Positions 1-60,382 of a stretch of DNA of 64,000 nucleotides are shown here, one piece after another (the stretch's first letter is position 1; each line of letters begins with the position of its first letter). Under the pieces are notes generated by a model that ran no database searches, was not told the origin of the DNA, and saw only the letters and a program-made list of their open reading frames with translations. The DNA lies in assembly GCA_024137785.1 (NCBI GenBank), contig JAHRHZ010000098.1, positions 24,480,309 through 24,544,308 on the forward strand, read 5' to 3'. The position numbers and the translations under genes are program-made. This stretch comes from Ginglymostoma cirratum (Eukaryota).

Positions 1-105
1 CCCTCCCCCATTTCTGATGAAGGGTTTAGGCCCGAAACGTCAAGTTTTCCTGCTCCTCTGATGCTGCTTGACCTGCTGTGTTCATCTAGCCCCCATGCTT
101 GTTAT
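1..105 (+). mobile_element. 3' end of a Penelope-like (Neptune-type) element with minimal hammerhead motif at 14-41
   Basis: Same sequence as the 3' end of the 59972-60382 arm; CTGATGA-A-GGGT-TTAG-GCCC-GAAACGTC. Confidence 0.85.
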
Positions 106-195
106 AAGCAGAGTGATGGGTTTATCAGACAGACATTGTTGTGTTAACTATTCAGAAACAAAACACACATTGGAACCAATCTATACACAAATAGA

Positions 196-201
196 TTTAT
201 T
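196..201 (-). terminator. Probable PRODH polyadenylation signal (AATAAA), implying a ~3.2 kb 3' UTR
   Basis: First canonical AATAAA I found on the minus strand after the stop codon, followed by a GU/U-rich tract (tgtgtgttttgtttc); ATTAAA variants occur near 1437 and 1521. Confidence 0.55.
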
Positions 202-837
202 GAAAACCTGAGAGGCGTTAGAACACACAACCAGGTAAATCAGTAGAAAGCACAGGGCAACTTTAAAAACAAGTCAAAAGAAATCACTCAGCATCAGAAT
301 TCCCAAATAAACACAGATCACATCACACTCCACCCCTGTTCCTTCTTAATGACTCATAAGTTTAAGTAATCTGATGATCCAATGACTTTTCTGACTGTTT
401 GCTGCAGGGTTGACTGTTACATTAGCAGTTACGGTATGTAGTCACATGATGCTCCCAAGGACACCATGCCTCATGTACATCCAACAGAAAGGAAGGCTAA
501 CTTGACAGCACCTACATTTAGATCGAATCAAGTTGATCAAGGACCAAGAATGTGCAGAGGGCTTGCAAATGCACAGCTTACTCAAACAATTTGCTACAGC
601 TACAGATATTTTTGAAGCTCGTTTTGCTTCTCTTCCTGTAATTCAGCCTTTATGTAACACTGGATCTCCTTTCTCACATCATGTCACACATTCACAAAGC
701 TTCAAAAATTTACATTTATGATCCCCCAAAGCATAAAATATTGAAAATAAGGGGCCATAGATTACAACCATTAGTGGATTCTTTCTCCTCAGCAACAACC
801 ACATCAGATCTTACCAATTTGGAGTCAAACAATGCAG

Positions 838-1045
838 TCCAATTCATGACTTTCATGAATATCTACAAAGGCAACACCCAACACCCCACATAAAAAGTAA
901 TTACCTTAACGGAAAAAAAAGGTTGAGGCATCATTTCACCTTCCCCAGAACAAAGGAGAAAGGGACTTCAACATCCGAGCCAACAGCAGCCCAGTATACT
1001 TCTGTACTGCAGTGGGTCTCACTACGGATCCCTATGTACTACAGA
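838..1045. repeat. Copy A of a diverged ~210-bp duplication (copy B 2683-2890)
   Basis: Shared blocks TCCAATTCAYGAYTTT, GGWTGAGGYATCATYTCACCTTCCC, TCAACATCCGAG, TTCTGTAMTGCARTGGGTCTC. Confidence 0.85.
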
Positions 1046-1113
1046 TCCCAGGCATGCTCCCCAGTAGGGCAGCAACTCATGGACAATCAGACATAGGCTC
1101 AGCATGATTCAGG

Positions 1114-1183
1114 AAGAGAGAGAGAGAGAGCGCGAGAGAGAGAGAGAGAGCGCGAGAGAGAGAGAGAGAGAGCGCGAGAGAGA
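1114..1183. repeat. (GA)n microsatellite with periodic GCGC interruptions, in the PRODH 3' UTR
   Basis: Direct inspection. Confidence 0.95.
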
Positions 1184-2280
1184 GGAGTGCAACTGCAACA
1201 TGTGTAGTTCAGATTGTGTGGGCTGACTGACCTTAGGAGTACAGCACAAATGAAGGAGTGCTAAAGATGTGGGAAGTTGGCTATATCCTTAAGTAAATAT
1301 CTAAGTAAAAACCTGTTTACTTCAATAAATTAAAAACTCTTCACATGCAACACGTTCCCATTTTGATTTACATGTGTTGTACATGGCTGGGGGAAGAATG
1401 TGGTCTGGGATTACCAATACATTTGAAGAGATGCCCTTTAATCAAAAATGATTAAGGACTATTGCTGCCGTAGTCAGACTTATTTCTCACTTCTCTCTGC
1501 TGCTTACATCTAAACACTTCTTTAATCCAAAGTCAAATGATCACTGTTACTAGTTGAAAAGCTCGACAGAGTCAATTTTCTGATCAACAGTGAGAAACAT
1601 GACTGGATCAGAGAGGTGGGGAGGGTGGGATTGCGAATAATCTGTCAACCCACCAGGCATTCCTAGGCTTGGCTGGTTTACTAACTTGGATTTTTTGACT
1701 TTACAATGCATGATGAGACAATGTAGCTGGAGTTTTCCCGTGCATTTGGAAAGGTCTGATGGGCCAATAGACACTAAGAAAGGGAGTGGATAACTTCCTC
1801 ATTGGTATTAATCCACTGTCACAGTAACCAAACATCAAATGACCTCCTGAAAACTGGAAAGTCTCTCATTAAACACAAACACCTCCAGTAGGTCAGTTCT
1901 GTCCACATTACACAGTTAAGTGGCAAAGATCAACATCTGCCTTTGAAGTAGAGCTCTGCAGGTCAACTAAAATACAGCAAAGTGCTCATAATAAAGGTTA
2001 ATCCAGCAGCTGCAGAGAGCATATATTACATGGTATAACATTCAGAATCAGTGTTTCTTACCCTCTTGTGCGCAAGTATTTTTTCCCCTTTGAGGCAAGA
2101 GTAGCAGGTTAATGGTTAGATCAATGACAAATTTCTGCAGAAATCTGAACAAAAATTCAGATAACAGTTTCAAACTAATTTGCACATTTGCAATGAAGCA
2201 AAATTGCAATTGAAGATTATTCGGTCCATTTCCAGTGTTGAGTTTGAGGTCACATTCATTAGTGCACTGTAACCACAGTG

Positions 2281-2283
<3 letters not shown>

Positions 2284-2321
<38 letters not shown>
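2284..2321. repeat. (CA)n microsatellite
   Basis: Direct inspection. Confidence 0.95.
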
Positions 2322-2323
<2 letters not shown>

Positions 2324-15500: not shown

Positions 15501-18500
15501 GTATCTAGCCGGTATGCTGCTCACTCAAGGCTCTATACCTGCAGGTTTGGAACTACAAAGAGTTTGGCAACTTCTGTCCTGTTGTCAATCAGATTATTCC
15601 AGTCCAACAGGTCTACAGTGCTGAAAGAAAGAGGAGAAAAGGGCACATGAGTTAGTGCTATGGATAAGGACACACCCACATTAGTAATACCTTGCACTGT
15701 ACAACAAAACTTCCCGCAGGATGTGCAATAGCGATGAGAAATTGATGCCTGTTAACCATTTATCAGTTCTTCTTTTGCAACCTCCTCTCTGTCAACTTCC
15801 TTTTTGACAGCTCTTTTCTTACAGGCAGATACTATTTCTGGGATACCAAGAGCCCCAGTGATTCACCCAGGTGACCAAGCACGTTATCATGCAAAGAAAC
15901 GTGAAGTGAAACATTTTGGTTGGAACAATGGATGAGAAAGAAAACAAAATATATGATCGTAATGTAGGCCTGGCAGCAAAAGGTATCTGGGGGTATACAT
16001 GCATAAATTGTTGAAGGTGGGATTCAGGCAGGCTAAAAGATGCAGGTTATAAAAGGCAATAAGTAGAAACGTCAAGTACTGATTCAAGGACATAATGCTG
16101 AATCCTTATAAAACACTGATTCAGCCTCAACTGGAAAAACTGCACTACACTTTAATAAGGATACGAAGACACAGTACAGAGGGTGCACAATACACTGCAG
16201 AATAACAGATTTCAGTTATGAGGATTGATTTGAGTGACAGGGCTGTTCACCTTGCAGAGGAGGTGATTTGAGAGAAGGTGAAACGGAAAAGTCATGAGGG
16301 GCCTGGACAGAACAGTTACAGATAAACTGTTTGCACTGGTAAAAGGGTCAAGAACCAAAAGGTCATAGATTTCAGGCAATTAGCAAGAGAAGCTAAAGGT
16401 GACAGGATTTAAAAAAGACACAGCAAGTAGTTCAGACCCAGAATGAACCTATTGCATGCCTGGTGGAGGCAGATTCAACCTTGTCTTTCAAAAGAGATTT
16501 AGATAAGCAGCCAAAGAGGAAATAAAAACTGGAAAAAGGAAAAGGCAGGGGAGTGGAAATAACCAACATGGATATGACAGCCCAAATGGCTTCCTTCAGG
16601 GTCACAAGCATTCTATTGTGGAGAGAATCTGGATAATGAGTGTCTTCAGGAAACAGGAAATCAACTTAACCTGGACTTCACTCACCATTTACGTAAGTAC
16701 TGTCCAGCTGGGGTCATCGAATAAGTTTCAGGAGCAGGGATGGCTGATTTTACCATTCTCTGCTCCTAGAGCAGTTTGGTCAATTGTAACGTGAAGACAG
16801 CCTTGGTGGAGATCAGCTAGCTCATCTGGAACAACATCACGTCGAAAACTACACTCACTCAGTGAGCCAATGAGCTTTTCTTGGGACAAAACAGCCCAGA
16901 ATTTGCTGGAATGGAGCACATCTTGGTACATCCATTAGTTAGACTTCCTCCCTCATCCTTTGCCTCAAAATCCTACCGCAAAACGTGAACTGATAACAAG
17001 AGTAACAGGTCACACAGACACTGGGCAGGAGAACAGTCCACTTCCTAATCAACAGGGTGGCAATGCAGACTCAATGGGTTGGATGGCCTACCGTGGTTCC
17101 TAATCACATTTTCAGATGTAACGATCGAGGAAGAGATGGAGAATGACACAAGAAAATTAGACAAATTGAAGTCAAATTAGAGACAGAAAGGGGGAGAAAA
17201 AAAAAGGAAGATAATAAAAGGAGAGAAGTAGTGAAAAGTTTCTTTTTTGGAAGTTGTTATAATCTCTAACGACAAGCTACAGGAATAAGATTCCGGACTG
17301 TCAATGACTACATGTCAAATTAGTAACCCTAGACAATGGGGAAGCCGTGTGGAACGCGGGGCATGCGTGCATGGAGCAGTTGGCCAGAGCATTAGCAGAG
17401 TTTGATCATACCTGTCAGTATACCTGAGGATACCTCTTTACGCTGGAGGATCCCCTCATGTGACTGATTGATAAAACCCGTTCACGCGCTACACCTCCTC
17501 CTGCACTTGAACTTCCCCAAGCCGCCTTCAGGTGGGTACCACGATTTGCCCTTGTATCTCTGCAGTGTGATTAACGTTAATGTCAGCACTGCTGGATTAC
17601 AGCCTATGAATCTTGCACAGAACGTTCTAGAAAAGCACAGGATGTCAGTAAACAGTACCTACAGCCACACACATGGAGTGAGATGCACAGGAGTGTGCTT
17701 GAACCAGGTGCTTACCCAGACAGTCCAATCTTCTCTCCATCAAACCAGTCGGTGATCTCTTCCAAGGTGGCTATGCCAAGTTTAGTCAAGCTATTCTGTA
17801 GGCAAAAGCAAGTAGAAAATGATCTTAAAACGTTATTCAACGTAGACAATGCAGAGAAAAATAATCCTCACTTCAGGCCGAGGTTTCACTTTCTCCCTTC
17901 AAATCCCAGAAAGCTGCTTAATTGCTGGAACTGCAGTCAGGACGGTACTGTTATGTCCCATGGTCAGTGGGTCAATATAATGTCGGTAATAGGTACGCCT
18001 ACAATCACTAGCCTTCTGTCAATCTGTGGGGCCAAACTGGCACAAAAAAGGTATTTAAATGCAATATTGGTAACATACCATTTTTCTCTCCCTAGGATGT
18101 CCTCCCTACCAGGAGGCAACGAATGCCAATTCTGACAGAAAAATTATTGTTTTCAAAACATTTCAAATATTGAAGCAGATTCTCCATTGGGCTTTGGGCC
18201 TCCAGTTTCTAATAACAGCCCTCTACGTGCACTTCCGTCAAAAAAACATTTCTAACGGCCACCGTGTACCAATTATCAGTTGTAAAAATCCATCTAGGTC
18301 ACTAATGTCCTTTAGGGAAGGAAATCTGCCATCCTTACCTAGTCTGGCCTATGCATGATACCAGACTCTCAGCAATATGGCTGAATCTGAGTTCTGAGGA
18401 GGGGTCACCAGACCCAAAACATTAACTCTGTTCTTTCCTTCACAGATGCTGCCAGGCCTGCTGCGCTTTTCCAGCAATTTCTGTTTTGTCTCCTGGTTTA

Positions 18501-21500
18501 CAGCATCCATAGTTCTTTCGGTTTTTTCTTTTGTTTTTGGCTGAATCTTAACTGGCTTCTGGGAAATTAGGGATGGGCAATAAATGCTGGCCTGGCCAGT
18601 AAGGCCTGTATAAGATGAATAATGAAATGGGACAGAGACCCAGCAAATTAATATCTGGCCCAATCTTCAGTGTGCCAATTTAGTTTGCACCAAATCTGTC
18701 CATTCTAAACCCTAGGCTTTTGATTTTAAAGTGAACAAAGGGAGATAAAAGTGATGCTGAAATTGTACCTGACCACCAGTATCATACAATAAAACAGAAC
18801 TGCGGATGCTGGAAATCTAGGACATAAACAGAAATTGCCAAAGAAACTCAGCAGCTTCCATGGAGAAAGAGCAGAGTTAACGTTTCTCGTTGAGCACCTA
18901 TTCTTCCCCTGAATAGCAATTTCTGTTTTTAATCAATGAAATTATCATGGTCAAGCAACTTGGTGCTGAAGCAGTTATATCCCATGGACATTATATCAAT
19001 ATGCCTTTAATGGGTATTCTCATGACATCATCACTATCACAAGATGTGGTCTTGGAGAATAAAGATCTCCTACTCCATCGGCAGCACATTCGCCCCGCGG
19101 TTAGCACTGCTGCCTCACAGTACCAAGGACCTGGGTTCAATCCCACCCTCGTGCGACTGTGTGTGGAGTGTGCACGTTTCCCCTTGGTGCTCTGGTTTCT
19201 TCCCACAGTCCAAAGATGTGAAAGCTAAGTGGATTAGCCACTGGGAATGCAGGGTTACAGGGATTGGGTAGGGGGTGAATCTAGGTGGGATGCTCTTTAG
19301 AGGATCAGTGTGAACTCAAAAAAATGGGCCGAATGGCCTGCTTCCACACCGTAGGGATTCTATGATCTTGACCTGGGATTCTTTGAAACCTGACAGAGTA
19401 CCAGAAATCTGCTACTCTGTCTAATTTCCTGGCTTAACACTAGCCCAGAAACCACATGCCTAAGGAATGCGACATTTGCATGTAATATTCAGCTCTGTTG
19501 GATTCCTCACTGCCACTCCATGCCTAGTTATGAGAGCGAACATAAACATTACCACATCAGGTAAAATACCCTTACTGGTGAGAAAAAAAACAAATTGCAG
19601 CTGATGGTTCGCAGTTTGCCTCTTCCTCTAACCCACCCAGCACCCCCTCATTTTGGCCAAGCACTCATTCACTGACCTGCAGTCGCTCCATATCCAGCTT
19701 CATGTCAACCGCAGCCTGGCCAGCTTTTCCTTGCTCAGCAGCAAGCTGGCGAAAGAAACCACGCCACTTAACCAGCACCTCGGAGAACTGCAGCTAGAAC
19801 GACAGCAGTGAGAAAGGAGCAAGTACAAAGTCAGACTTTCAGAAACAAACATACAGAGCACCCACCATTACCCCAAGGAGATGCACAAATACCCCCTCGC
19901 TTTCCTTACAGCATTATACAGAACGTAGGCTCTTTCCACCACCTTCATTGCTAATAAGACCATTACAGTTTAGAGGAATATTGCTCAGGTTTGATGACCG
20001 TTTCACACATCACTACCTTCTCGTCTGTTGTTATTCTGCCCCCAGTCTAAGTTTTTAATATATAGAAATAAGAGTAGAATCCTACCAGGAACTGTGGTCT
20101 CCCCAATGCTGTCAGCTTGATGGCAGAAAATCCATCCTCGGAACTCCCTCCTATAAATAATACAGAGCGCAGCTATGAATCATCAGAGAACTGAACCAGT
20201 GTGCTACCAAAATCACCAGCAGCAATATGGGTAGTACCAGTGAAGGAGTAACCCACTGAACATCAAAAGACTACAGTAAATCATTCACCTCTGCCAGTAA
20301 TTAGCACACAACCCACTATGCACCAACAGCAACGATGCAGGAAACTAATGTAGGTTGGAGAGTGAGCCATGGAAAAGTAGAAAATCAGCATTGAGTATAC
20401 CCACACTACTGGAAACCCACAGCGCCTAACAAAACAGAGTCGTACCAGATGCTGCAATACACTTCAGGAAGGTCTCCATGAATTGGTCGCATTTCGACTC
20501 ATCAGCGTAAAAGTATGTCCGAGCACTAAAGACATCTTCTCTACGGTCTCCAAATTGCTTGTGAGGCCGGAATTTCTTCTCCCTGTGAACGCTGCCTGCG
20601 GAGGTGAGAAACAACATCACAAAAATAAAAAACCTCTGGAAAGGCCAGGCAAGTTTTGCAACATTGAGAAAAACTGTAATGAGCGGGCCATTTGTTTTAT
20701 GACCATTTTAAGAGAAAGTTAATTTTTTTTGTATTAGGTTGAGCTTTCAGAAAATCGGATCATGGTAGAGAAGTCCAACACTGGTAGTGCTCACATACAG
20801 GACAGCAGGAGCCCTTATGGCTCAGGGAACTGAAATCCACGAATTATTTTCCTTTATCCACTGAGAGACTTATTTGTAAATCTGCTCCCTATCCCAGGTG
20901 TGTGGAGTCTAATTACAGTGCCCAAACTGCAGTGCAAGCAGGAACTGGCTAATGAGCACGGAGTAGAACTGCGAGTTGTCTGCATTATGCAATCCAATAT
21001 ACCTTAAGTCTGTTCACTTATGGATAATGCATCCAACATTTCTTTTAAAAAAAAAAAAAATCACTTTAAAATGAACACAGTCTGTTTCCAGGTTTGGGTC
21101 TTCACATTGTTGACACATGGAGAAACCTACAAGCCCTCACATTCATCCCAGGTGCTGCTTGGGCTACACTATATCACAGCACTAGCCGTTTGTCAGCAGC
21201 CCCGACCAGAAGGACAATCTCCATACATGAGAGAAAGCAGAGGGCTATCGAGGCTGGATCACTAAATATATTCAAGGCGGAGATAAAAATCTGTCTGTCT
21301 ATCTCAATAGCAGAATCAAGGTTTAATGGAGAAAAGGCAGGATAGAGGAGTTGAGGATTATTGCATCAGCTGTGATCTCAACGAATGGCAGAGCAGACTC
21401 AATGGCTTTTCTATGTTCCTATATCTTACGTGAGTCATTGGTTGGCAGCTGGAAGCAAGAACAGAAGCCGATTTTCTTTCCCCTGTGCTAACTCTGTGGC

Positions 21501-41636: not shown

Positions 41637-41920
41637 AAACAAAAAGAGAAATTGCTGGAGAAACTCAGCAGGTCTGTCAGCATTTGTGGAGAGTAAGAAA
41701 AGAGCTAAACGTTTCGAGCCCAGCTCTGAAGAAGGATCTGAAACAGAAATTGTTGGAGAAACTCAGTGGTTCTGGCACCATCTGTGGAGAGAGAGCAGAG
41801 CTTTTGAGTCCAGTGATCTGCTTATTTTTATCTTCACAGATGCTGCCAGACCCGCTGAGTTTCACCAGCAAATTCTGCTTTTTTTGTCTTGTATCTCCAG
41901 GATCTGTAGTTGGTGGTTTT
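41637..41920. mobile_element. Tandem + inverted Penelope-like 3'-end derivative immediately upstream of the PRODH promoter
   Basis: Two direct GAAATTGYTGGAGAAACTCAG units then an inverted copy; partial hammerhead pieces (AACGTTTCG, CTGAAGAAGG); possible TSD ACCYYAGAGYTTG. Confidence 0.7.
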
Positions 41921-44775
41921 AGTACCTTAGAGTTTGGGTTGGGCCCTGTATATCTGCGCTTTGAGAATGCCAAAGAATGGGGAAACGGAATAAAAAAGGC
42001 CATTCACTCCATCAGATGACTGCACGCCAGATCTCCGAATGAACAACCTGTTGCCAAACCCTGACCTTTCCTTCTGTTTTAAAACTGACCTGCACAAACA
42101 AACTTAGGAGGCATGTACCCTCCCTCCTCCAGGCGCACTGTAATGAAAACCAAAATATCAAAGGAAATTATGGATGTAAATAAAGATATCACAGTGGGAT
42201 GTTACTCCCAATCTAACCAAACATTCTTCCCTTTCAGATGCTAATCATGTCTTGGATGGCATGATTGAATCTGTCGCCACCACATTCTCAGGCAGCACGT
42301 ACCAGATGTCAACCAGGCACTGCTTGAATTCATTGCTTCTTTTGCCAATTGCCTTCAATCTGTGTCCTCTCGTTCTTGAGTCTGGGAACAACCGTTTCCT
42401 ATCTGTTCTCCAGTACTGACCTGATTTTGAACACACCTCCATCAAATCTCAACCTATTCTTCTCCAGGGATAGTAGACCTGCCCTCTCTGGTCTATTTAT
42501 ATATAAATTGATTTCCGCATCCTGGAGAATCTTTAATTGAGAATCTTTCCTGCTCCTTCTCAAATCCCTAAACATTTTTTTATTTCCCAAATTAAGGTGC
42601 CCAGAACAAATTAATTTAGCAAAGTGACTGCCTATTTCAAGGCATAAACAATAAAATCCAAATTTAATGTAAAACCAAAGGAAAGTGATGAAATCACCCC
42701 TAATACTGTTTCTGGCATCAATTCCACAGAATGCCTGAAATGTATCAATGTGCATTTCATGCTTCCTTGCCAAGGACTCATAGGAACATAGGAAAAGGAG
42801 TAGGCTATTCAGCCCCTTGAGCCTGTTCCACCATTCAACAAGAACATGGCTGATATCTAGCCGAACTCTATATATCTGCCTTTGGCCCATGCCTCTTGAA
42901 AGCTTTGCTAAACAAAAATTTTTCTATCTCATATTTAAAATTAACATCTATGTATGGACAGAACTACAAGTGAGAGGCAGACAGTTGAACAAAGTGGTCC
43001 AACCAACATAATCACTTCACGCCCCCACCACCAACACCACCACCCCCTCCCAAAAGCCCAAACAATGGCTGGAGCTGTTAATGGCCACTTTTGGATCAAT
43101 GATCTCATGTCACCTGCTCACCATCCCCCTCCCAATCTGCTTACTGGATGGCAAAAGATCTGAAGAATGAGATTGGAATTGAGAAGTAACCACTTTAAAC
43201 AGTGGAAGCAAGACTTGGCCTCTAACACTCAACACCAAACCATTAAATATATGATAGAGTGGTAGAGGAGGGATGATGTGACAAGTGAAACTTTGCATTT
43301 CACATATTTGAGTGTATTCTCTATGCTCATAGCCTAAAAATTCAGTAAGGAAATGCTAATATTTATACAGGCCTTAACAAAATTTGACGGAAACGGTTTG
43401 GAGGTTTGTTTTAATACTTTATTCTTTTGAGAAGATAGCAAAACAATTGAAGTGGCTGATGAAAAACCGGACAATGCAAGATGACAGGTTGAGCACCTGA
43501 AATGTATACATGACTGTCAGAGGAGATTTATATGGATTATGATGCAAGAGAAAGGATTGTTCTGAGCGTGTCTTAGTAATTCATGCGGCAAAAGTTTCAA
43601 AATCTGAGGGAACATCCTGTGCAAACATGTATTGAATTCAAAAGGATAAAGCAAAATAAGTTTGACAGATGGATACAAGCCTTAGAAATAAATACCGCAC
43701 ATGACTTTCTCATGGAAATCATTTTTGTTGTAAGAATTTAAAAACTAACTACCTTTTGTATGGCAAGCCCATGTGAAGATCAGAGGGTTACACTTCTGAA
43801 CAGCCAGCAAAAATGGCAGACAATAATGAGCTGACCAACAAAAATAAACCTTTTTCCATTGCACCCAGCTAATGTGACTTACTGAGGTTTTCCAGAGTGA
43901 GCCTGAAAAAGGAGCTCATAAACTCAAATTGTAGCTTGAACTATAACAGTGAAACTGAAGGTAAATGCTGCTGAGCGCAGAACAGTTAAGTTACAATGAG
44001 AAATACAGATGGCTTTACCAAAAGGAAAGATCAACCCTTTTTCTTCAAATGGTGTACCTAAACCAATAATAATATTAAAATACGCAGAAATTATTCAAAC
44101 TGTTTTGCAGAAGAAGGAAGTAGTTTTTTCACCAGGGAATGCCATGAAAGCCAAAGTGTTAATAAATGGCATAAGTTCTGTTTCATTAAGTGCAATTGAG
44201 CATGAGTCGTGAACAAAACAGTGGCTTTAGGTGTTGTTAAGAAAATTATTAGTGGATGAAGATGACTTCCTCCCAGGAAATGATTTGGCTGGAGTAAAAA
44301 ATATAAATTCGCTAACATTCATAGAAAGTCCAAATGAGGCTAATGAGACAAAACACTTATAGGAACAAGTCCTCCATCATTTGTGGTGACCACAGCGGTG
44401 TCTCAACAAAACTCATCACCAGAAGTCAAAGTAATGCCAGAAGACGATGTTAAAGTAGCCAGAACTTTCTTTAAGGATGTGAATTATTGAACATTGGGGT
44501 ACATTAGAAACTGAATTTCTTTAGCAATTACTGGGTAGATGTAATTTAACAGCTATTACAGCAGTGCTTAACTTTCCAAAATTCTAGCTTATTTTTTATT
44601 CATTCATAGGTCGTGAGTGTGATCGGCTAGGCCAGCATTTGGTGCCTATCCTGGGCAGTTAGGAGTCAACCACATTGTTGTGGTTCTGGAGTCACATCTA
44701 GGCCAGATGAGGTGACAATGGCAATTTCCTTCTCTAAATGGACATGAATGAACTAGTTAGATTTTTCCGACATTG

Positions 44776-44897
44776 TAGGAACTGCAGATGCCGGAGAATA
44801 TGAGATAACAAGGTGTAGAGCTAGATGAACACAGCAGGCCAAGCAGCATCAGAGGAGCAGGAAGGCTGATGTTTCGGGCCTAGACCCTTCTTCGGAA
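44776..44897 (-). mobile_element. Miniature Penelope derivative inserted in a tRNA-SINE; decayed hammerhead 44868-44895
   Basis: Matches the Penelope 3' end; TSD ATTTTTCCGA..ATTG at 44761-44775 and 44898-44913. Confidence 0.8.
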
Positions 44898-46387
44898 ATT
44901 TTTCCGATAATTGACAATGGTTTCATGGTCATCATTAGACTCTTAACCCCAGATTTGTTTTTGTCTTGAATTCAAACTTCACCTGCCATGGTGGGATCTG
45001 AATCTGGGTCCTCAGAACATTACCTGGGTCTCTAGATTTATTGTCTATTGATAATGCCACTAGGTGAACACCTCTCCGTGAAAACAAGGGAAAGAATTAT
45101 AAAAACACAGAAGTCACAATGTCTGTTGAACTAGTATCGATAATTCATCTGGCACCAAATGCACCCTTTTATCATTGTGTCAATTTCAAAAATAAACAGT
45201 GTTTGTTCTTAAAAAGAATTGTAAACCAACCTTCTGTTGAGGGCAGGTAAGGGGACAATGATTATCCAATGTCACGAATAGCTGTTCCATGGCCATTGGC
45301 CAACAGCTCAGACAATTGATTGACACAGAGTAAGTTAGCTGCCCCGAGAAATAAGATATAACAATAAGTGTTCAGGCCAGAGTGGACTCCTTTTAGGGAG
45401 CCTCATCAAACAGACCTGTGAGGCAGCAGTTCTCATCACATGGTCCACAGAGAATAGTCTTCATCAGGCCAATGGAAGACAGATCACAAGGAGTGCAGGA
45501 AGACCAAGTGAAGAGTTCACTAACATCAGTAGAGGAGAGGATGCTGTCCCCCACCATCACTTTAATGAGACTAAAACATTCACGCTGAAAGCTCATTTAT
45601 CCTTTGGTATTAGTGAACCATTCCCACTTGTTATAGTTTAACGTTTTCTTTATCTAAAAAATATATCATACCTATCATAAACTACTGTTTATTAACAAAC
45701 TTTTAAAAAATCAGAAAATCACAATCATTGACTGCTTATATTATGTAACTGTGGTCATGAACCCCTAAATCAACGGAATGAACCAAAAGAAGTCTTTGAA
45801 ATGTTGTTGATAATTAAGGCTCATAAAGCAAAGCCAGAGTTAAGTAAGATAACTCTGAAGCGGAGGCTGAAGAATTTCTAGTGTGTCATCACATTACAAG
45901 TAGTGTTCTAGTGAAGAAATGGAGACGTCTTCATAGACCTGCAGATGAGGGATGAACAGTCAGTCAATTAAATAGTGGTAGCATTCAAATATCATAAGGA
46001 AATAATGTGAGTAGCACCTGAAATTCCTTTTAGGACACATAGGATTATGAAAAGCCCAAGCATCAATCAACAGACATTTTGTCTCAATAAGACTTCATAA
46101 GAATGTAGTACAGCTCTGCAAAAGATGTCATATATATCAAGTAATGGGAAACCTCAACATGTAATCAAACTAGCACCTTTAATACACTTAAACTTTTTGA
46201 AAAATGGTACAGTTGAGTGTTACTATATTGTGTAGGACCATTACAGAAAGCAAATGCAAGACACTGGTATATCCTTACAGCTATGGATATTACAACCCAA
46301 TTTCCTGAAGCGATTCCTTTAAGGGACTACTACAACTAAGGGAGAAATGGAAAAGTTACCAATAAAGCAACATTTCTGTTAGATAAG

Positions 46388-46591
46388 AGATAGTAAGAAC
46401 TGCTGATGCTGAAGTCAGAGATAACACAGTGTGGAACTGGAGGAACACGGCAGGCCAGGCAGCATCAGAGGAGCAGGAAAGCTGACGTTTCAGGTCGGGA
46501 CCCTTCTTCAGACTCGAAATGTCAACTTTCCTCTTCCTCTGATGCTGCCTGGCCTGCTATATTCCTCCTGCTCCATGCTGTGTTATCTCTT
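46388..46591. mobile_element. MITE-like inverted Penelope derivative; hammerhead motif 46484-46511 (-)
   Basis: Two opposed 3' ends; diverged 16-bp TSD ATTYCTGTTRGATMAG at 46372-46387 and 46592-46607. Confidence 0.8.
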
Positions 46592-47614
46592 ATTCCTGTT
46601 GGATCAGCCTGGAAAAAAATAAACTCAGGCGGGAATAGATGTTCAATATGTGCTAGAAAATTACTTAACTGAAACTAACCAAAGCTTTTAGTGTTCACTA
46701 GTGGTATTAGTTCTTAAACCAGATGAGTCAACTAGGTTTTGCATAGATTACAGGAAAGCAAATGCAACAGTGCAAGGAGATTCATAGCCAGTTCCCGAGT
46801 TCAAAGGATGTTTTGATAGGGTTGGCAGTGCTTCATTTTTTTTTAATGATCTACAGAAGGAATACTGGCAGGTTCCATTAATATCAAAAGCTGAGGAGAT
46901 ATCAGCCTTTCTTAGACAAAATGGGTTGTATCAATGTCAAATCATGTCATATAAGTTTAAAAATGTCCCAGAAACATTACAAAGAATTATGAATCAAGTC
47001 TAAGCTAAAGTGCTGAAATGTGTAGCTTGCTTAGATAATGCAAGACAGAACACCAATGCTTCACCACAGGCACACTGATGATGTTACCTAGCAAACAGTT
47101 AGGCTCAGTGAGAAAGTCTGCAACCTCCTCTGCACCTCCTCCAGTACAATCGTATCCTTCCCATAGTAAATTACAGTAACACTGGTAAGAAAATGAAAGT
47201 AACTGAAAGGCCTGGTTAAACAGTTTTATAGCTGGCTTGGTAATAATCTTGCCAAGAGTGACTTAGTAAAAGCAATATCATAGGGCAAAGATGAACATTG
47301 GCAAGAAAATCAAAAGTAGAAGTTCTGTTAGAATTCTCTGTCATGAAAACTAAATGGGAAATTATGAAATTTTTAGGAAGATGTGTGTTCTTTTGAAAAG
47401 TTGTATCCAATTATAGCACAATGGCTGTATCTTAAGTGGATTTGTATTGAAGAAAGGTGGTATGGCCAGCAGAGTGCAAAGCTTTGAGATGCGACAGTCA
47501 ATCTTAATAAATTAACTAACATTGGCCGTACCTGACTCTGTTTAACTTTTTAAAATGGCAATTGATGTAAGTGATATCATGTTAGTGCCTCTTTCTCTTT
47601 CACTTTCTATATGC

Positions 47615-50561: not shown

Positions 50562-50564
50562 GAG

Positions 50565-51070: not shown

Positions 51071-52407
51071 ATCAAAATATCCATGAGAAAACTACTTTTC
51101 CATGTTGTGATCTGGACATTTGATTTATGAAATTTTGTTCACCCTGACTATGTTCTTTTTCCACTGTAACTGTGTTAAATGTCTTTTGTCTGTTTTAATT
51201 GTGATTGATTATGTGTGTTTCTGAGGGCTTTGAATAAGTTTTGATAGTTGCATCATAGTAAATTAGAAATCTCTTATTTTTTCTGCTCTTGTTAAAGTTA
51301 TGTGTGTTATAGTCAATAGTTATTTTATTGTTACTGACAAAACCTGGTCTAAATTGCTTTTATCCTGAGTCAGGCAGGCAAATTGGTTATTTTGGTGGTC
51401 TCATTGAGATTTTATACACTTATACATTTTGGGAAGGCGCGCGATCATGATTATCAGTGTACTCTTCCCAATTAAGTTACAACAAAATATACACAGTCGT
51501 ATAATTAGGTGATAATAATATTTCACACAATAGACATATTAGGAAGACTTAAAACCTAGGGTTTAAGAGGCGTGTACATATGAAATTGGACAAGGAACAT
51601 GATTAAGCCTCAAGAGCAGCAATGCATTCATTTTTGGGCACCACCACTTAAGGAAGGCTAGCAATACCCTAGGGTTTTTGCTGAAGAAATTTATTACTAT
51701 GTCACCTGAGCATTCTTTGAGAGCCTCCCCCTCAGCCACAACATGTAACACATGAAAGGACAAGCTCAACATGCATGGGATCAACACCACTTACAGAACC
51801 CTTCCCAATTTACACAATATCCTGATCTGTGAATACATTACCTTTCCTTCATCCCCACTGGGTTACAATGTTAAAACTCTCTACTTACGAGGATGATAAT
51901 TCCAGCATTTTAAGAAAACTACTTACTTAAAGACAATTGGGGATTAAGAATGAATACTGAACTTGCCAGTAATGCCTACATCCCAGGAATGAATTTAAAA
52001 AAGTGATGTCAATATTGAACTTATTACTCCAAGTGTTTGGCATTGTGCTTTAATAAAGAGTAAACTGGAGATTTGAATTTCATTTCAGTAGTCTCTCCAT
52101 AGAAGAAGCTATTGAACAAAAATGTCAAAACCAGCCTCCTGTCAAATAACTTTTGAGAGATTAATGTCTGTATTGGATGGGAGTGATATTTCCTTGGGGG
52201 TTAATGTCTGTAAAGGATATTGCTGGGAAAAAAATGGTTGATTTTTTTCTTTTTGCTATTTCAGTTAAGATCTTTATGAATTATTCCATATATAGATATC
52301 AACACTCCCTTATTGATTTTCAAAACTGGAAATCAATGTGTCAGCATGCTGATTGCACCAATCATGTGACTGCAGAGCTTAGAGGGAACACCGATATATT
52401 CGTTTCA

Positions 52408-55400
52408 GAGATAGTAGGAACTGCAGATGCTGGAGAATCTGAGAGAACAAGGTGTAGAGCTGGATGAACGCAGCAGGCCAAGCAGCATCAGAGGAACAGG
52501 AAGGCTGACGTTTCAGGCCCAGACTCTTCTTCAGAAATGGGGGAGGGGAAGGGGGTTCTGAAATAAATAGGGAGAGGGGGGGAGGCGGATAGAAGATGGA
52601 TTGAGAAGAGGATAGTTGGAGAGGAGACAGACAGGTCAAATAGGCAGTGATGGAGCCAGTAGAGGTGAGTGTAGGTGGGGAGTTAGGGATGAGACAGGTC
52701 AGTCCAGGGAAGATGGGCAGGTCAAGCGGGCGGGATGATGTTAGTAGGTAGGAGATGAGGGTGGGGCTTGAGGTGGGAGGAGGGTTAGGTAGGAGGAAGG
52801 ACAGGTTAGGGAGGCGGGGACAAGCTGGGCTGGTTTTGGGATGTGGTAGGGGGAGGGGAGATTTTGAAGCTTGTGAAGTCCACATTGATACCATTGGGCT
52901 GCAAGGTTTCCAAGCAGAATATGAGTTGCTGTTCCTGCAACCTTCGGGTGGCATCGTTGTGGCACTGCAGGAGGCCCAGGATGGACATATCTTCTGAGGA
53001 AAGGGAGGGGGAGTTGAAATGGTTCGCGACTGGGAGGTGCAGTTGTTTAGTGCGAACCGAGCATAGGTATTCTGCAAAGCGGTCCCCAAGCCTCTGCTTG
53101 GTTTCCCCGATGTAGAGGAGGCCACAATGGGAACAGCGGATGCAGTATATCACATTGGCAGATGAGCAGGTGAACATCTGCTTGATGTGGAAAGTCTTCT
53201 TGGGGCCAGGGATGGGGTGAGGGGGGAGGTGTAGGGGCAGGTGTAGCACTTCCTGCGGTTGCAGGGAAAAGTGCCAGGTGTGGTGGGGCTGGAGAGGAGT
53301 TTGGAGCTGACAAGGGAGTCACGGAGAGAGTGGTCCCTCCGGAAAGCAGATAAGGGTGGGGAGGGAAAAATGTCTTTGGTGGTGGGGTCAGATCGCAGTT
53401 GGCGGAAGTGTTGGAGGATGATGCATTGGATCCAGAGGTTGGTGGGGTGGTACGCGAGGACGAGGGGGATTCTGTTTTGGTTGTTACTGCGGATAGGGGG
53501 TGTGAGGGATGAGTTGTGGGAAATGCGGCAGACACGGTCGAGGGCGTTCTCGACCACTGAAGTGGAGAAGTTGCGGTCCTTGAAAAACGAGGACATCTGA
53601 GATGTACGGGAGTGGAATGGCTCATCCTGTGAGCAGATGCGGTGGAAGCGAAGAAATTGGGAATAGGGGATGTCATTTTTGCAGGAAGGTGGTTGGGTGG
53701 AGGTGTATTCTAGGTAGCTGTGGGAGTCAGTGGGCTTGAAATGGATATCGGTTTCTAGGTGGTTGCCAGAGATGGAGACAGAGAGGTCCAGGAAGGAGAG
53801 AGAGGTATTAGAGATGGCCCAGGTGAAGTGAAGGTTGGGGTGGAAGGTGTGGGTGAAGTGGATGAACTGTTTGAGCTCCTCGTGGGAGCACGAGACGGTA
53901 CCGATACAGTCATCAACATAATGGAGGAAGAAGTGGTGCTTAGGGCCAGTGTAGCTACGGAAGAGGGATTGTTCCACGTAACCTACAAAGAGGCAGGCAT
54001 AGCTTGGGCCCACGCGGGTACCTATGGCCACGCCCTTTGTCTGTAGGAAGTGGGAGCAATTGAAAGAGAAGTTGTTGAGGGTGAGGCCGAGTTCGGCTAA
54101 GCGGATGAGGGTGACAGTGGAGGGGGACTGGTCGGGCCTGCGGGACAGGAAGAAGTGGATGGCCTTTAGGCCATCTGCATGGGGAATGCAAGTGTATAGG
54201 GGCTGGACGTCCATGGTAAAGATGAGGTGTTGGGGACCGGGGAATTGGAAGTTCTGGAGGAGGTGGAGGGCATGGATGGTGTCATGGACGTAGGTAGGGA
54301 GTTCCTGCACCAAGGCGGAGAAAATGGAGTCGAGATAGGTGGAGATAAGTTCGGTGGGGCAGGAGCAGGCAGAGAGAATGGGTCGAACAGGGCAGTCAGG
54401 TTTGTGGATTTTGGGAAGGAGATAGAAGCGGGCGGTGCGGGGTTGGGGAACAATGAGGTTGGAGGTTGTGGGTGGGAGGTCACCTGAGGTGATGAGGTTG
54501 TGGATAGTTTGGGAGATGATGGTTTGGTGGTCGGGGGTGGAGTCATGATCAAGGGGGCAGTAGGAGGAGAGTTGGCGCCTCTGTGCGCCATACTGCAACT
54601 GCGCGTCCCTTGTCCGCGGGTTTTGTGGTGAGGTTGGGATTGGAGCGGAGGGAGTGGAGGGCTGCACATTCTGCAGGGGAGTGGTTGGAGTGGGTGAGAG
54701 GGGTGGAGAAGTTGAGGCGATTGATGTCTCAACGGCATTTGGAGATGAAGAGGTCGAGAGTGGGTAGGAGGCTATAGACCCTATACCCCTGCATTCCCCA
54801 TACAGATGGCCTAAAGGCCCTCCGCTTCTTCCTGCCCCGCAGGCCCGACCAGTCCCCCTCCACTGACACCCTCATCCGCTCAGCCGAACTCGGCCTCACC
54901 CTCAACAACGTCTCTTTCAATTCCTCCCACTTCCTACAGACAAAGGGGGTGGCCATGGGTACCCACATGGGCCCAAGCTATGCCTGCCTCATTGTAGGTT
55001 ATGTGGAACAATCCCTCTTCTGTAGCTACACTGGCCCTAACCCCACCTCTTCCTCCGTTACGTTGATGACTGTATGGGCGCTGCCTTGTGCTCCCACGAG
55101 GAGCTCGAACAGTTCATCCACTTCACCAACACCTTCCACCCCAACCTGAAGTTCACCTGGACCATCTCTAATACTTTTCTCTCCTTCCTGGACCTCTCTG
55201 TTTCCATCTCTGGCAACCACCTAGAAACCGATATCCATTTCAAGCCCACCGACTCCCACAGCTACCTAGAATACACCTCCTCCCACCCACCTTCCTGCAA
55301 AAATGCCATTCCCTATTCCCAATTCCTTCACCTCCACCGCATCTGCTCCCAGGATGAGGCATTCCAGTCCTGCACATCTCAGATGTCCTTGTTTTTCAAG

Positions 55401-56507
55401 GACCGCAACTTACCCCCCTCAGTGATCGAGAACGCCCTCGACCGTGTCTCCCGCATTTCCCGCAATTCATCCCTCACGTCCCTATCCGCAATAACAACCA
55501 AAACAGAATCCCCCTCGTCCTCACATACCACAACACCGACCTCCAGATCCAACGCATCATCCTCCAACACTTCCGCCAACTGCAATCCGACCCCACCACC
55601 AAAGACATTTTTCCCTCCCCACCCTTATCTGCTTTCAGGAGGGACCACTCCCATGTCAGCTCCACACTCCTCTCCAGCCCCACCACACCTGGCACTTTTC
55701 CCTGCAACCGCAGGAAGTGCTACACCTGCACCTACACCTCCCCCCTCTGCCCCATCCCAGGCCCCAAGAAGACTTTCCACATCAAGCAGATGTTCACCTG
55801 CACATCACCTGCTAATGTGGTATACTGCATCCGCTGTTCCCATTGTGGCTTCCTCTACATCGGAGAAACCAAGCGGAGGCTTGGGGGCCGCTTCGCAGAA
55901 CACCTATGCTTGGTTCGCACTAAACAACTGCACTTCCCAGTCGCAAACCATTTCAACTCCCCCTCCCATTCCTCAGATGACATGTCCATCCTGGGCCTCC
56001 TGCAGTGCCACAACGATGCCACCCGAAGGTTGCAGGAACAGCAATTCATATTCCACTTGGACACCCTGCAGCCCAATGTGGACTTCACAAGCTTCAAAAT
56101 CTCCTACATCCCAATACCAGCCCAGCTTGTCCCCGCCTCCCTAACCTGTCCTTCCTCCCACCTATCCCCTCCTCCCACCTCAAGCCCCATCCCCATCTCC
56201 TACTTACTAACCACATCCCGCCCGCTTGACCTGTCCATCCTCCCTGGACTGACCTATCTCCTACTTAACTCCCCACCTTCACTCACCTCTACTGGCTCCA
56301 TCACTGCCTATTTGACCTGTCTGTCTCCTCTCCAACTATCTTCTGCTCTATCCATCTTCTATCCGCCTCCCCCTCTCTCCCTATTTATTTCAGAACCCAC
56401 TTCCCCTCCCCCATTTCTGAAGAAGAGTCTAGGCCCGAAACGTCAGCCTTCCTGCTCCTCTGATGCTGCTTTGCCTGCTGTGTTCATCCAGCTCTACACC
56501 TTGTTAT
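52408..56507. mobile_element. Two-armed inverted Penelope-like (Neptune) insertion (minus arm 52408-~54775, plus arm ~54775-56507), frameshifted RT + GIY-YIG
   Basis: ORFs with FYLLPKIHK, GVAIGTRVGPSYA, HYVDD, YCIRCSHCGLLYIGETK; TSD CACYGATATATTYG at 52389-52402 and 56508-56521. Confidence 0.95.
56417..56444 (+). ncRNA. Minimal hammerhead motif (CUGAAGA subfamily)
   Basis: CTGAAGA-A-GAGTCTAGGCCC-GAAACGTC; one stem II mismatch; mirror copy at 52507-52534 (-). Confidence 0.65.
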
Positions 56508-58243
56508 CACTGATATATTTGGCTTGGTTACTTTCTCACAAGTAATAAATTTGAGTACTTTCATTAAAAGAACATTGCCAGCCCTATTTGAAAATGTCTA
56601 ATAACCGAACTTCAGTAACCACAGTGCAAAAATAAAGCTCACAATCTATCAAGCCAGCTTTCACTCGAAGATCTGACTTATCCAATATTGCCATCAACTG
56701 GGATTAAAGTAACAGCCATGAAAGAAAATAGAGATTAAGCATTAGACCAAGTGGTTCACAAACTAAGAGAAAAGAAAAGGACATGTAGAAACTACATTAA
56801 AAGAGCATTTGAGACAGAGGATTTTGCCTTGATTTAAAGTTTACACCTAATGGAATCCAAAAATCAGAAAGATTGTCTACCAGTAGCATCTTGATAGTTA
56901 CCCAAACTGAATCAATTGAGCAATTTCTTAACTTACGACATATAAAAGCCATGAATTTTACTCAGTATGACAAAGTTGATTTACTGTAATGCATGGCAGA
57001 GGTGAAGCTGCAAACAGTGAAACAAACTTTCATTTAAATGAGAATAACTTTAATAATCTATGCAAATTGGACTTGAGCTCCTGCTACTTTTACTGGGTTG
57101 GTTTGCTACAAAGAAGAATTGTTTAGTGGTGAAATTTGAGTAGTTGAAATAAATAGCGTAAACGCATTTATGGGGAAGCTGGTCAAGCAGGGAAAGAAAG
57201 AATAGAGGGTTATGTTAATAAAGATAGATAAGAAAGAATGAAGCACAAGTGGACCTAAAATGCTGGCATTGACTAGTTGGGCTGAATGACCTTTTTCTGT
57301 ATTATGTGGAAAATCATTCTCATGCATGGAAGCAGTTTCTGCCTTTATGTTAATGACATCAATCTTGAGATTACCACAGCCTTTCTCAACTTGTGAAAGT
57401 GTTCCTGACATCTTACATTCAGAATTGTGTCCAAACTGTATTTAGTTAATAATGTATACACATTAATAAGTTAATGATGTCGTCTCAAGATATTTTTGAC
57501 ATGTATCTGAAAGCTGATTTTGTTGTAACTCATTGAGTAACATACGGCCAAAATATAAACATTAAATTCAAAATGGTTTGTCAGATGCTGTCATCACATG
57601 AATTTCAGTGCCTTGAATGTGGAAGTATTAATTCTGAGTTACTCACCATTACTTCCAGTATCAAATTCAGCAGCTGACTGCAGAAATCTATGACTTGCTG
57701 AATTATGGCCTTATTTCCTATTTCCATCTCTATTCATTGTTCCAATCTTCTCTTTCAGTGATATGTTGTACACAGTGTGATCTTACAAAATTGCTCTTCT
57801 CACCAAGAAGCTGGGTACAGTCTAAGAAAATATCCATCAATCTTGTGTCGTCGCTCATGAATTGGTGAAACAAACTATAACCAGGGAACAAGTTAATTCT
57901 GGACATCTGGCCAAAAAAATCTGTTTATACAGTGCCCTTCTTTTCACTAGTGTTGGTTCAGTTCCAAAACAACATGGTGTTTCTGGAGTAGGCCATGCTG
58001 TGTAGTATTTTGAGTGGCTATTTTAGGTGATTGATAGCATGGCCATGGGAACACATGGAAAGGGCAGATTGTAATGTCAGTTAGTGTGCAAACAGTTAGT
58101 ATGTGATGCCAACAAGGACCATTTTCGATCTCAATGATCCAGCTAATGGCCTAGCTTAAACTTATACAGCTTAAAGTGCATTCAGAAGCAGTGAGGGATG
58201 GATGCAAGCTGCACTTTTTGAAAAGGATCATTAGCCACTTTCA

Positions 58244-60382
58244 AGATAACAAGCATGGGGCTGGATGAACACAGCGCGTCAAGCAGCATCATAGGAGCAG
58301 GAAAACTTGACGTTTCGGGCCTAGACCCTTCATCAGAAATGGGGGAGGGGAAGAGGGTTCTGAAATAAATAGGGAGAGAGGGGGAGGCGGATAGAGGATG
58401 GATAGAGGAGAGGATAGGTGGAGAGGAGGCAGACAAGTCGAAGAGGCGGGGATGGAGCCAGTAAAGGTGAGTGTAGGTAGGGGGGTAGGGAGGAGATAGG
58501 TCAGTCCAGGGTGGACGGATGGGTCAAGGGGGCGGGATGATGTTAGTAGATAGGAGATGGGAGTGGGGCTTGAGGTGGGAGGAGGGGATAGGTGAGAGGA
58601 AAAACAGGTTAGGGAGGTGGAGATGAGCTGGGCTGGTTTTGGGATGCGGTTGGGGGAGGGGAGATTTTGAAGCTTGTGAAATCCACATTGATACCATTGG
58701 GCTGCAGGATTCCCAGGCTGAATATGATTTGCTGTTCCTGCAGCCTTCGGGTGGCATCACTGTGGCATTGCAGGAGGCCCAGGATGGACATGTCGTCTGA
58801 GGAATGGGAGGGGGGAGTTGAAATGGTTCACAACTGGGAGGTGCAGTTGTTTGTTGCGAACTGAGCGCAGGTGTTCTGCAAAGTGGTCCCCAAGCCTCCG
58901 CTTGGTTTCCCTCATGTAGAGGAAGCCACAACGGGTACAGCGGATGCAGTATACCACATTGACAGATGTGCAGGTGAACATCTGCCTGATGTGGAAAGTC
59001 TTCTTGGGGCCTGGGATTGGGGTGAGGGAGGAGGTGTGGGGGCAGGTGTAGCACTTCCTGTGGTTGCAGGGAAAAGTGCCGGGTGTGATGGGGCTGGAAG
59101 GGAGTGTGGAGCGGACAAGGGATTCGCGGAGGGAGTGGTCCCTCCGGGAGGCAGATAAGGGTGGGGAGGGAAAGATGTCTTTGGTGGTGGGGTCTGATTG
59201 CAGATGGCGGAAGTGTCGGAGGATGATGCGTTGGATCCGGAGGTTGGTGGGTTGGTACGTGAGGATGAGGGGGATTCTTTTTTGGTTGTTATTGCCGGGA
59301 CGGGGCGTGAGGGATGTGTCACGGGAAATGCGGGAGACACGGTCGAGGGCATTCTCGACCACTGTGGGGGGGAAGTTGCGGTCCTTGAAGAATGAGGACA
59401 TCTGAGATGTACGGGAGTGGAATGTCTCATCCTGGGAGCAGACGCGGCGGAGGCAAAGGAATTGGGAATAGGGGATGGCATTTTTGCAGGAGGGTGGGTG
59501 GGAGGAGGTGTATTCCAGGTAGCTGTGGGAGTCAGTGGGCTTGAAATGGATATCGGTTTCTAGGTGGTTACCCGAGATGGAGACAGAGAGGTCCAGGAAA
59601 GAGAGAGAAGTGTTGGAGATGGTCCAGGTGAACTTCAGGTTGGGGTGGAAGGTGTTGGTGAAGTGGATGAACTGTCCGAGCTCCTCGTGGGAGCACGAGG
59701 CGGCGCCGATGCAGTCATCAATGTAACGGAGGAAGAGGTGGGGTTTAGGGCCAGCGTAGCTACGGAAGAGGGATTGTTCCACGTAACCTACAAAGAGGCA
59801 GGCATAGCTTGGGCCCATGCGGGTACCCATGGCCACCCCTTTTGTCTATAGGAAGTGGGAGGAATTGAAAGAGAAGTTGTTGAGGGTGAGGACGAGTTCG
59901 GCTAAGTGGATGAAGGTGTCGGTGGAGGGGGATTGGTCAGTTCTGCGGGACAGGAAGAAGCAGAGGGCCTTTCACCTCCCTAACCTGTTTTTCCTCTCAC
60001 CTATCCCCTCCTCCCACCTCAAGCCCCACCCCCATCTCCTATCTATTAACATCATCCCGCCCCCTTGACCTGTCCGTCCTCCCTCGACTGACCTATCTCC
60101 TCCCTACCCCCCTACCTACACTCAACTTTACTGGCTCCATCCCCGCCTCTTCGACTTGTCTGCCTCCTCTCCACCTATCTTCTCCTCTATCCATCCTCTA
60201 TTCGCCTCCCCCTCTCTCCCTATTTATTTCAGAACCCTCTTCCCCTCCCCCATTTCTGATGAAGGGTCTAGGCCCAAAACGTCAAGTTTTCCTGCTCCTA
60301 TGATGCTGCTTGACCTGCTGTGTTCATCCAGCCCCACGCTTGTTATCTCGGATTCTCCAGCATCTGCAGTACCTTTTATCTC
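58244..60382. mobile_element. Two-armed inverted Penelope-like (Neptune) insertion (minus arm 58244-~59971, plus arm ~59972-60382)
   Basis: 359-aa ORF with AMGTRMGPSYA, RYIDD and GIY-YIG-like motifs; 16-bp TSD TCATTAGCCACYTTCA at 58228-58243 and 60383-60398. Confidence 0.95.
58309..58336 (-). ncRNA. Minimal type I hammerhead ribozyme motif (best-preserved copy)
   Basis: CUGAUGA-A-GGGU(CUAG)GCCC-GAAACGUC; stem I AUUU/AAGU; palindromic ACGU in place of stem III. Confidence 0.8.

Follow-up and report, generated by a model that had tools for sequence, protein, structure and literature searches.

Minimal hammerhead ribozymes in the terminal repeats of shark Penelope-like elements: copy ends point to an uncut RNA that starts beside the ribozyme

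Introduction

What does a ribozyme do for a retroelement that has scattered it through a genome, and was the RNA from which those copies were made cut by it beforehand? These questions are raised by a 64,000-nucleotide stretch of the genome of the shark Ginglymostoma cirratum (GenBank assembly GCA_024137785.1, contig JAHRHZ010000098.1, positions 24,480,309 to 24,544,308, forward strand; hereafter the window), in which minimal hammerhead ribozyme (HHR) motifs lie within the remains of Penelope-like elements (PLEs). The association of hammerheads with PLEs is already known (PMC4209133) and the motif itself is ordinary. This genome, however, makes the role of the HHR testable, as it holds a recently active family, whole reading frames and more than 100,000 copies whose ends record the RNA that was copied. 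The reading we favor, with a probability of about 0.7, is that minimal type I HHRs sit in the terminal repeats of three endonuclease-bearing families of these elements, that the RNA likely starts approximately 4 nt before the HHR and is likely copied uncut, and that the HHR would cleave only as a protein-assisted dimer, in full-length or tandem transcripts.

Hammerhead motifs and the elements that carry them

The window contains 11 whole minimal type I motifs and one half-motif. A first-pass annotation of the same DNA had listed 12 sites as about a dozen motifs, and all of its coordinates and strands were correct; the site at 47075, however, is a 19-nt 5' half whose 3' half is absent, and it is not a ribozyme. 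That annotation had also proposed a search with a minimal type I descriptor, and the pattern CTGANGA-N12-24-GAAACGTH gave six core-intact matches in the window versus none in 100 shuffles. The catalytic core is thus kept in six of the 11 whole motifs (at 14, 25282, 46484, 52507, 56417 and 58309), among which stem II is also undamaged only at 14 and 58309, there being a G10.1-U pair at 25282, 46484 and 52507 and an A-C mismatch at 52507 and 56417. The other five bear out the remark that several copies had point mutations, with core damage at 34596 (C15.2>U), 44868 (U4>C, G16.2>A), 60256 (G12>A), 18394 (G12>A, G16.2>A) and 31402 (G8>A). As had been described, an extra nucleotide follows A9 in all 11 whole motifs and ACGU stands in place of stem III wherever it is undamaged. 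Stem II pairs in all three families of motif. The proposed cleavage after GUC does not fit one of these, family B, whose usual triplet is GUU (10 GTT and no GTC among 57 spanning copies). Rfam at its gathering threshold found no hammerhead in the window, which is not surprising because no score is to be expected from minimal HHRs without stem III.

The division into three families and their Penelope-like origin were both upheld, the latter by the finding of reverse transcriptase (RT) and C-terminal GIY-YIG endonuclease (EN) sequences. On the sequence features listed in PMC8557442, the motifs lie in the pseudo-long terminal repeats (pLTRs) of two Neptune-type families (A and B) and one of Penelope/Poseidon type (C), a placement that comes from motifs and not from a tree. 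The 120 relatives of the element protein that were listed included no named PLE reference; the best of those with a name were bamboo shark entries, at 77-80% identity, in keeping with a shark host. In the window, reading frames adjoining family A motifs match RT and GIY-YIG profiles. Elsewhere, three loci among 114 protein-search matches have open frames of 1049 codons, each with DKG, YIDD, a CX4CxxC linker and a GIY-YIG domain with two cysteines; RVT_1 and GIY-YIG scored above the Pfam cut-offs in the one frame that was scanned. The stretch that links RT to EN reads CNRRKCYTC in A and CNCQTCNTC in B, and a CX2-5CxxC linker motif is common to Neptune and Nematis. Families B and C are known only as broken 3' parts: B runs upstream into a related linker and endonuclease, and C into a C-terminal GIY-YIG domain with CCHH and no linker finger (900 nt translated at each of two loci).

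Family A has the structures of such elements, namely pLTRs from tandem or partial-tandem arrangement, an inverted 5' copy, an optional tail and target duplication. In full-length copies the first ATG lies approximately 165 nt after the 5' HHR, and the open reading frame (ORF) stops approximately 250 nt before the 3' HHR. Nine long loci were fetched, chosen from 30 by their furthest upstream reach, and six of the nine have two same-strand HHRs 2.1-3.4 kb apart.

Copy ends and the RNA that was copied

In what follows, position 0 is C3 of the hammerhead, and on this scale predicted cleavage would leave family A RNA from +28. In the random sample of 10-kb stretches described below, the 5' junction was readable in 125 of 142 tail-bearing family A copies. 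The starts fell before -8 in 41 copies, at -7 to -1 in 45, at 0 to +23 in 24, at +24 to +27 in one, at +28 in none and at +29 to +60 in 14, such that 110 of the 125 were at or before +23. When copies with N within 60 nt were dropped, 38 of 116 still began at -7 to -1, versus 3.3 expected. In family B, 42 of 91 copies started 1-7 nt before the HHR, and four of the six two-HHR family A loci began at -1 to -5, the other two being partial tandems. Together, these copy ends speak against the view that the template was usually cut RNA, and they place the ribozyme at the likely start of the RNA. The bases at the junctions are CCATTTC in A and TCAGTTC in many B copies, both of which fit what we take to be the initiator consensus.

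Two other sources of the boundary were considered and rejected. Stalling of the RT at a folded HHR would fall 3' of the fold, near +32, and a splice acceptor at the 5' edge of the HHR is not consistent with the sequences upstream of the junctions, which vary from copy to copy. Non-templated G residues at the 5' junctions, the signature of a cap, were sought by eye and were too inconsistent to count. Our literature searches returned no report of copy starts piling up at the 5' edge of an HHR.

The 3' ends of family A copies form two peaks, at +91 to +93 (short ends) and +125 to +127 (long ends, bearing the tail). An optional 3' tail has been described (PMC3846280 and PMC8557442), and PMC11167929 ties it to two internal RT starts. 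That the tail is one-sided is in print as "often" or "optional", and the same searches found no count of it.

Inverted insertions

Many copies are joined head to head, and these pairs were counted in a random sample of 159 stretches of 10 kb taken in even steps along eight contigs. Of 44 head-to-head pairs, five had one unclassed end; the 39 that could be classified all combined one long with one short end, where independence of the two ends predicts 49% (P = 1e-12). Flanking duplications of 12-18 bp were present in 30 of these 39 pairs. The same combination was found in 13 of 17 rows from loci picked by pattern, with three more unclassed (two of the rows are repeats from overlapping loci), and in all four family A pairs of the window. 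This strict rule constrains how inverted insertions can form.

Of 31 pairs free of N, 18 had a short-ended arm that extended further 5' than its partner by more than 15 nt; in five the long-ended arm did so, and in eight the two were level. In those 18 pairs neither arm can have been the template of the other, because only the long arm has the tail and the short arm reaches further 5'. The outcome of this arm-containment test weighs against strict fold-back here. Copy starts and pairs together point to an uncut RNA template with two separate primings per insertion. The arms differ by 4.5% within pairs and by 11.8% between pairs (33 pairs). The arms of most pairs belong to the same subfamily; at one locus (L181, ~5500-5750) a head-to-head junction brings together a full-length A1 copy and a short A2 copy.

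Decay, conservation and covariation of the motif

In the random sample the core was kept in 50 of the 95 family A copies that reach C3. Changes were concentrated at the core CpG positions, which were altered in 16.8% of cells versus 1.7% for other core positions. Changes common to at least three copies were rare in the core relative to the tail (0.26% versus 1.76%, P = 2e-5), and for changes private to one copy the rates were 1.05% (core) and 1.79% (tail), with P = 0.09. A host-driven, faster loss of core CpGs was looked for in 12 long A1 copies and not seen, with 5 of 24 core CpGs mutated versus 13 of 59 others. The HHR is therefore kept in the source lineages and decays neutrally in dispersed copies, mostly at two CpGs. 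The first-pass annotation had regarded a lack of excess core conservation across genomic copies as evidence against the ribozyme; that test does not hold, because the decay of dispersed copies is neutral irrespective of what the source element requires.

The second pair of stem II in family B showed the same pattern across the genome. It is G-C in 7,332 copies, A-C in 297, G-U in 300 and A-U in 251. The disruptive A-C and the tolerated G-U single changes are equally common, and this indicates neutral decay; the double change to A-U was approximately 20-fold more frequent than expected (251 versus about 12), and it marks mainly one subfamily, a relative of the main B type, that has a compensatory pair. 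These counts modify the structural covariation that had been claimed for stem II. The claim had compared GGGU/GCCC with GGGUC/GACCC, which have the same G-C pairs, and among the nine window copies there were no two-sided pair changes and no pair counts beyond those of shuffles; the pairing of stem II in every family stands, and a compensatory change does exist elsewhere.

Genome-wide load

In the 4.36-Gb genome we counted at least 141,058 core-intact motifs, versus 1,340 for a reversed control. A single family A 28-mer has at least 31,579 exact copies (control 0), the main family B pattern at least 7,332 and family C at least 1,275; all are floors, since part of the assembly reads N. The density in the readable part of the random sample was 71 per Mb (66 in 930,043 bases). 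There are also ~250 intact copies in the genome of a fourth HHR subfamily, in which stem II is GAGUC/GACUC and the loop has 5 nt.

The expectation of a very large ribozyme load was correct as to number. The core-intact count is approximately 15 times the largest in the 2014 survey, and PMC4209133 reports ~4,000 motifs in coelacanth and ~9,000 in Xenopus with a different descriptor. The term "ribozyme load" nevertheless overstates the case, because the core is damaged in 45 of the 95 family A copies sampled and because near neighbors tend to face opposite ways: 32 pairs are on opposite strands and 18 on the same strand, seven of the latter with both cores intact. Most copies are decaying passengers.

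Proposed role of the hammerhead

Based on these findings, we suggest the following course for the source elements. Transcription would start near -4, the first four bases of the RNA forming stem I. The RT-EN protein would cut both target strands with a stagger of 12-18 nt, and each target 3' end would prime cDNA at an internal site of the RNA, +127 for one and +93 for the other. Priming on the 5' repeat would run off at the RNA start and so yield the abundant 100-130-nt copies of HHR plus tail, priming on the 3' repeat would yield longer ORF-bearing copies, and the joining of two cDNAs would yield head-to-head insertions. Predicted cleavage, after GUC (GUU in B), would be a side or regulatory step in source elements and not one needed before copying. 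Full-length or tandem transcripts would undergo it between their two HHRs, with the help of protein, and it would remove a 32-nt 5' piece or free a unit-length RNA. The inserted copies would be passengers that lose the core by CpG decay. A ribozyme near the start of the RNA has a precedent in Drosophila Penelope, which starts 46 bp before an intron whose end abuts its HHR (PMC2377424).

More tentatively, and at somewhat less than even odds, the copies may be taken as a census of insertion intermediates, in which the RNA starts 4 nt before the HHR and is copied uncut, every inverted insertion is asymmetrically primed from opposite target strands, with one priming at each of the two RT start sites, and the HHR would serve as a 5'-end (decapping) switch on source transcripts and not to make the template.

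Several results weigh against the uncut-template reading. The assignment of the start site rests on DNA junctions, whose coordinates are good to approximately 3 nt, and on the presumed initiator consensus. In poly(A) RNA reads there was no pile-up of starts or ends at -4 or +28, in a run that appears unstranded and swamped by read-through copies and that neither shows nor excludes cleavage. The double hammerhead of A1 has a predicted energy of -6.3 kcal/mol versus -28.8 kcal/mol for the competing fold, and stem I, which has four pairs in A1 and B and three in C, has only two in A2. One of the 17 rows from pattern-picked loci was a short plus short pair, and several arms of inverted insertions hold template-jump pieces that blur the 5' coordinate. 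The random sample may not represent the genome, 41% of its letters being N. As to decay, the variants shared among copies are not independent events, and private core changes were somewhat rarer than those in the tail, such that weak selection on copies is not excluded.

The best surviving alternative, which we consider unlikely, is that the HHR does not cleave in vivo and has been retained because, at the start of the RNA, it folds into a protein-binding or promoter element, ribozyme-like in sequence only. It would account for the lack of any trace of cleavage in copy ends or poly(A) reads, and it is consistent with the GUU triplet of family B and with the weak predicted folds. The double hammerhead could be drawn for all three families with ViennaRNA, and it lay 9-31 kcal/mol above the best competing dimer fold; in single-strand folding, six of seven pieces had no significant z-score. 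The stem II and loop of A1 are nearly palindromic, and a 12-bp duplex between two copies is predicted, in competition with the active dimer. PMC8557442 further notes that Naiad elements do well with no HHR and regards the function of HHRs as unclear. However, only the catalytically free positions (7, the extra base, the loop and 17) vary across the Neptune-type and Poseidon-type families, a compensatory stem II pair exists, and for the anole HHR both cleavage in the presence of protein and C3/G8 rescue have been reported (PMC11167929). The predicted unfavorable dimer fold is itself in line with the low activity reported in PMC4209133 and the protein dependence reported in PMC11167929.

A model in which paired HHRs cut the transcript and the ligated unit-length circle is the obligatory template was proposed in PMC4209133, and here it appears a little less probable still. 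Full-length copies do have the two same-strand HHRs that it calls for, and a ligated junction would rebuild the upstream sequence, so that the 41 of 125 copies that extend beyond -8 could fit. A circle, however, has no end at -4, where 45 of 125 A copies, 42 of 91 B copies and four of six full-length copies start, and no copies begin at +28, as unligated cut RNA would leave.

It is very improbable that the -4 boundary and the inverted arms arose at the DNA level, by an endonuclease cut at an ATT beside the HHR or through fold-back and self-priming, perhaps with an antisense template. In its own repeat the enzyme of the anole has a preference for 5'-ATT-3' (PMC11167929), and ATT stands at -4 to -2 of family A; PMC3846280 put forward self-priming with an antisense template, and short overlaps at junctions are common. 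Family B, however, has AGTT at this place and the same pile-up, fold-back needs one arm to lie inside the other and fails in the 18 pairs described above, and the uniform long plus short pairing is left unexplained.

Least probable of all is that a large number of the dispersed copies work as ribozymes and shape the transcripts of the host, for instance as cis or trans dimers that cut intronic pre-mRNA: one poly(A) run had 41,891 of 12.9 million records (0.32%) on the first 731 bp of the element, with depth ~30-fold higher over the HHR and tail, and three copies lie sense in introns of a proline dehydrogenase gene in the window, but two of those three have damaged cores, decay matches neutral rates, and read ends do not pile up. 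In that run, 93% of the element's records continue into sequence unlike it, the pattern to be expected if dispersed copies are read through. A second read run gave only 11 and 6 reads and says little on pile-ups.

Relation to known hammerheads and Penelope-like elements

The motifs described here have several features in common with the minimal type I HHRs of metazoan PLEs (Cervera and de la Pena 2014, PMC4209133), a paper that covers Neptune and Poseidon elements of fish: they lie in pLTRs, lack stem III, are palindromic at 15.2-16.2, have an extra base between 9 and 10.1 and a G10.1-C11.1 pair, and include many solo copies and close opposite-strand pairs. Stem II of family A, at 4 bp, is shorter than the 7-8 bp of Schistosoma, and the available parts of that paper mention neither sharks nor a pile-up of copy starts at the 5' edge of the HHR. 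Dimer cleavage is the subject of work by Lunse et al. (via the review PMC6765202). Our searches on hammerheads and Penelope elements in sharks and elasmobranchs found no paper on shark PLE hammerheads; a 2026 preprint (bioRxiv 10.64898/2026.07.22.740005) sampled one cartilaginous fish for tandem retrozymes.

Like the EN-bearing Neptune and Nematis elements of Craig et al. 2021 (PMC8557442), families A and B have an RT with C-terminal GIY-YIG, the CX2-5CxxC linker and two GIY-YIG cysteines, together with partial tandems, an inverted 5'-truncated copy and a 30-40-bp tail on one end. Unlike in those elements, no targeting of microsatellites was evident in the flanks that we read, and the tail rule is strict (39 of 39), whereas PMC8557442 says "often".

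The element PAc of the green anole, a Poseidon (Frangieh et al. 2024, PMC11167929), offers a mechanistic parallel. There, both strands are cut and extended, HHR cleavage is assisted by protein, and uncut RNA is the main substrate. PAc resembles the shark elements in the HHR near the start of the ORF and, on the reading proposed here, in its two internal RT starts that bound the tail, the cutting of both strands and the copying of uncut RNA, and family C lacks the linker, as does the clade of PAc. The two differ in that the PAc ORF starts within stem II, whereas the long frame of the shark element has its first ATG ~165 nt after C3. They differ also in that the RT start of PAc in vitro was the same for the two strands, whereas the shark's inverted insertions combine one start of each kind. 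In A1 (58309-58336, minus strand), the core CUGAUGA contains an AUG from which a 15-codon frame runs, a frame that A2 does not have; we set this beside the anole element, whose main ORF starts within its HHR.

The animal non-LTR retrozymes of the 2026 preprint are likewise non-coding, HHR-bearing and derived from PLE pLTRs, but they form tandem arrays, whereas the copies here are dispersed as solo or inverted insertions and share subfamily letters with ORF-bearing copies. We rejected an assignment of the window copies to this class, as no array overlaps the motifs and the copies continue into the PLE ORF.

Insertions and other features of the window

The largest family A insertion (A2, 52407..56514, both strands) is inverted and has intact cores in both arms, with an A-C mismatch in each stem II. 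Its minus arm has RT and GIY-YIG remnants, HHR 52507-52534 and a long end, and its plus arm has HHR 56417-56444 and a short end. The A1 insertion at 58244..60383 (both strands) is flanked by a 15-16-bp duplication and joins a 1.7-kb minus arm, with the intact HHR 58309-58336 and a short end, to a 0.4-kb plus arm with HHR 60256-60283 (G12>A) and a long end. At 34496..36252 (both strands), the minus arm has HHR 34596-34623 (C15.2>U) and a long (+127) end, and the plus arm has an RT-EN fragment with an internal deletion and a short end. The small A3 insertion at 46386..46595 (both strands) has a ~13-bp duplication; its minus arm begins at -1, with the core of HHR 46484-46511 intact, a G10.1-U pair and a long end, and its plus arm begins at about +20 and has a short end.

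The remaining family A copies are on single strands. The A1 3' end at 1..105 (plus) is cut by the start of the window and has HHR 14-41, with core and stem II intact, and a short (+90) end. The short copy at 25212..25324 (minus) begins at -3, has an intact core in HHR 25282-25309 with G10.1-U, a short end, an additional 10-nt inverted piece of a long end and a ~12-bp target duplication, and lies sense in a proline dehydrogenase intron. The solo copy at 44769..44899 (minus) begins at -4, has HHR 44868-44895 (U4>C, G16.2>A) and sits in an older repeat with a ~9-bp duplication.

Family B is represented by a solo copy at 18389..18537 (plus), which starts 5 nt before HHR 18394-18423 (G12>A, G16.2>A), has an 11-bp target duplication and lies antisense in a proline dehydrogenase intron, and by a broken composite at 41642..41900 (both strands), overlooked by the first-pass annotation, that has inverted tails and the halves of its HHR apart, with no whole motif. 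Family C is present as a 3' fragment at 31330..31520 (minus) with HHR 31402-31435 (G8>A), the bases upstream of which encode the C-terminal peptide of longer family C copies, and as a fragment at 47035..47093 (plus) that ends inside stem II and has only the 5' half of the HHR.

The older repeat occurs at 11892-12232, 18284-18599 and 44595-45063, and its uninterrupted copy at 11892-12232 served as a stand-in for the empty site of the insertions at 18389 and 44769. A PRODH-like (proline dehydrogenase) gene spans ~3435-41340 on the minus strand, with three exons that match Pro_dh; HHR copies 25282, 31402 and 34596 are sense in its introns, and 18394 is antisense. A pol fragment of an LTR retroelement, matching RT_RNaseH, is at 48839-49600 (minus). 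A tRNA-like match at 27463-27535 (plus; Rfam 34.7 bits, with several broken pairs) is likely the head of a tRNA-derived short interspersed element.

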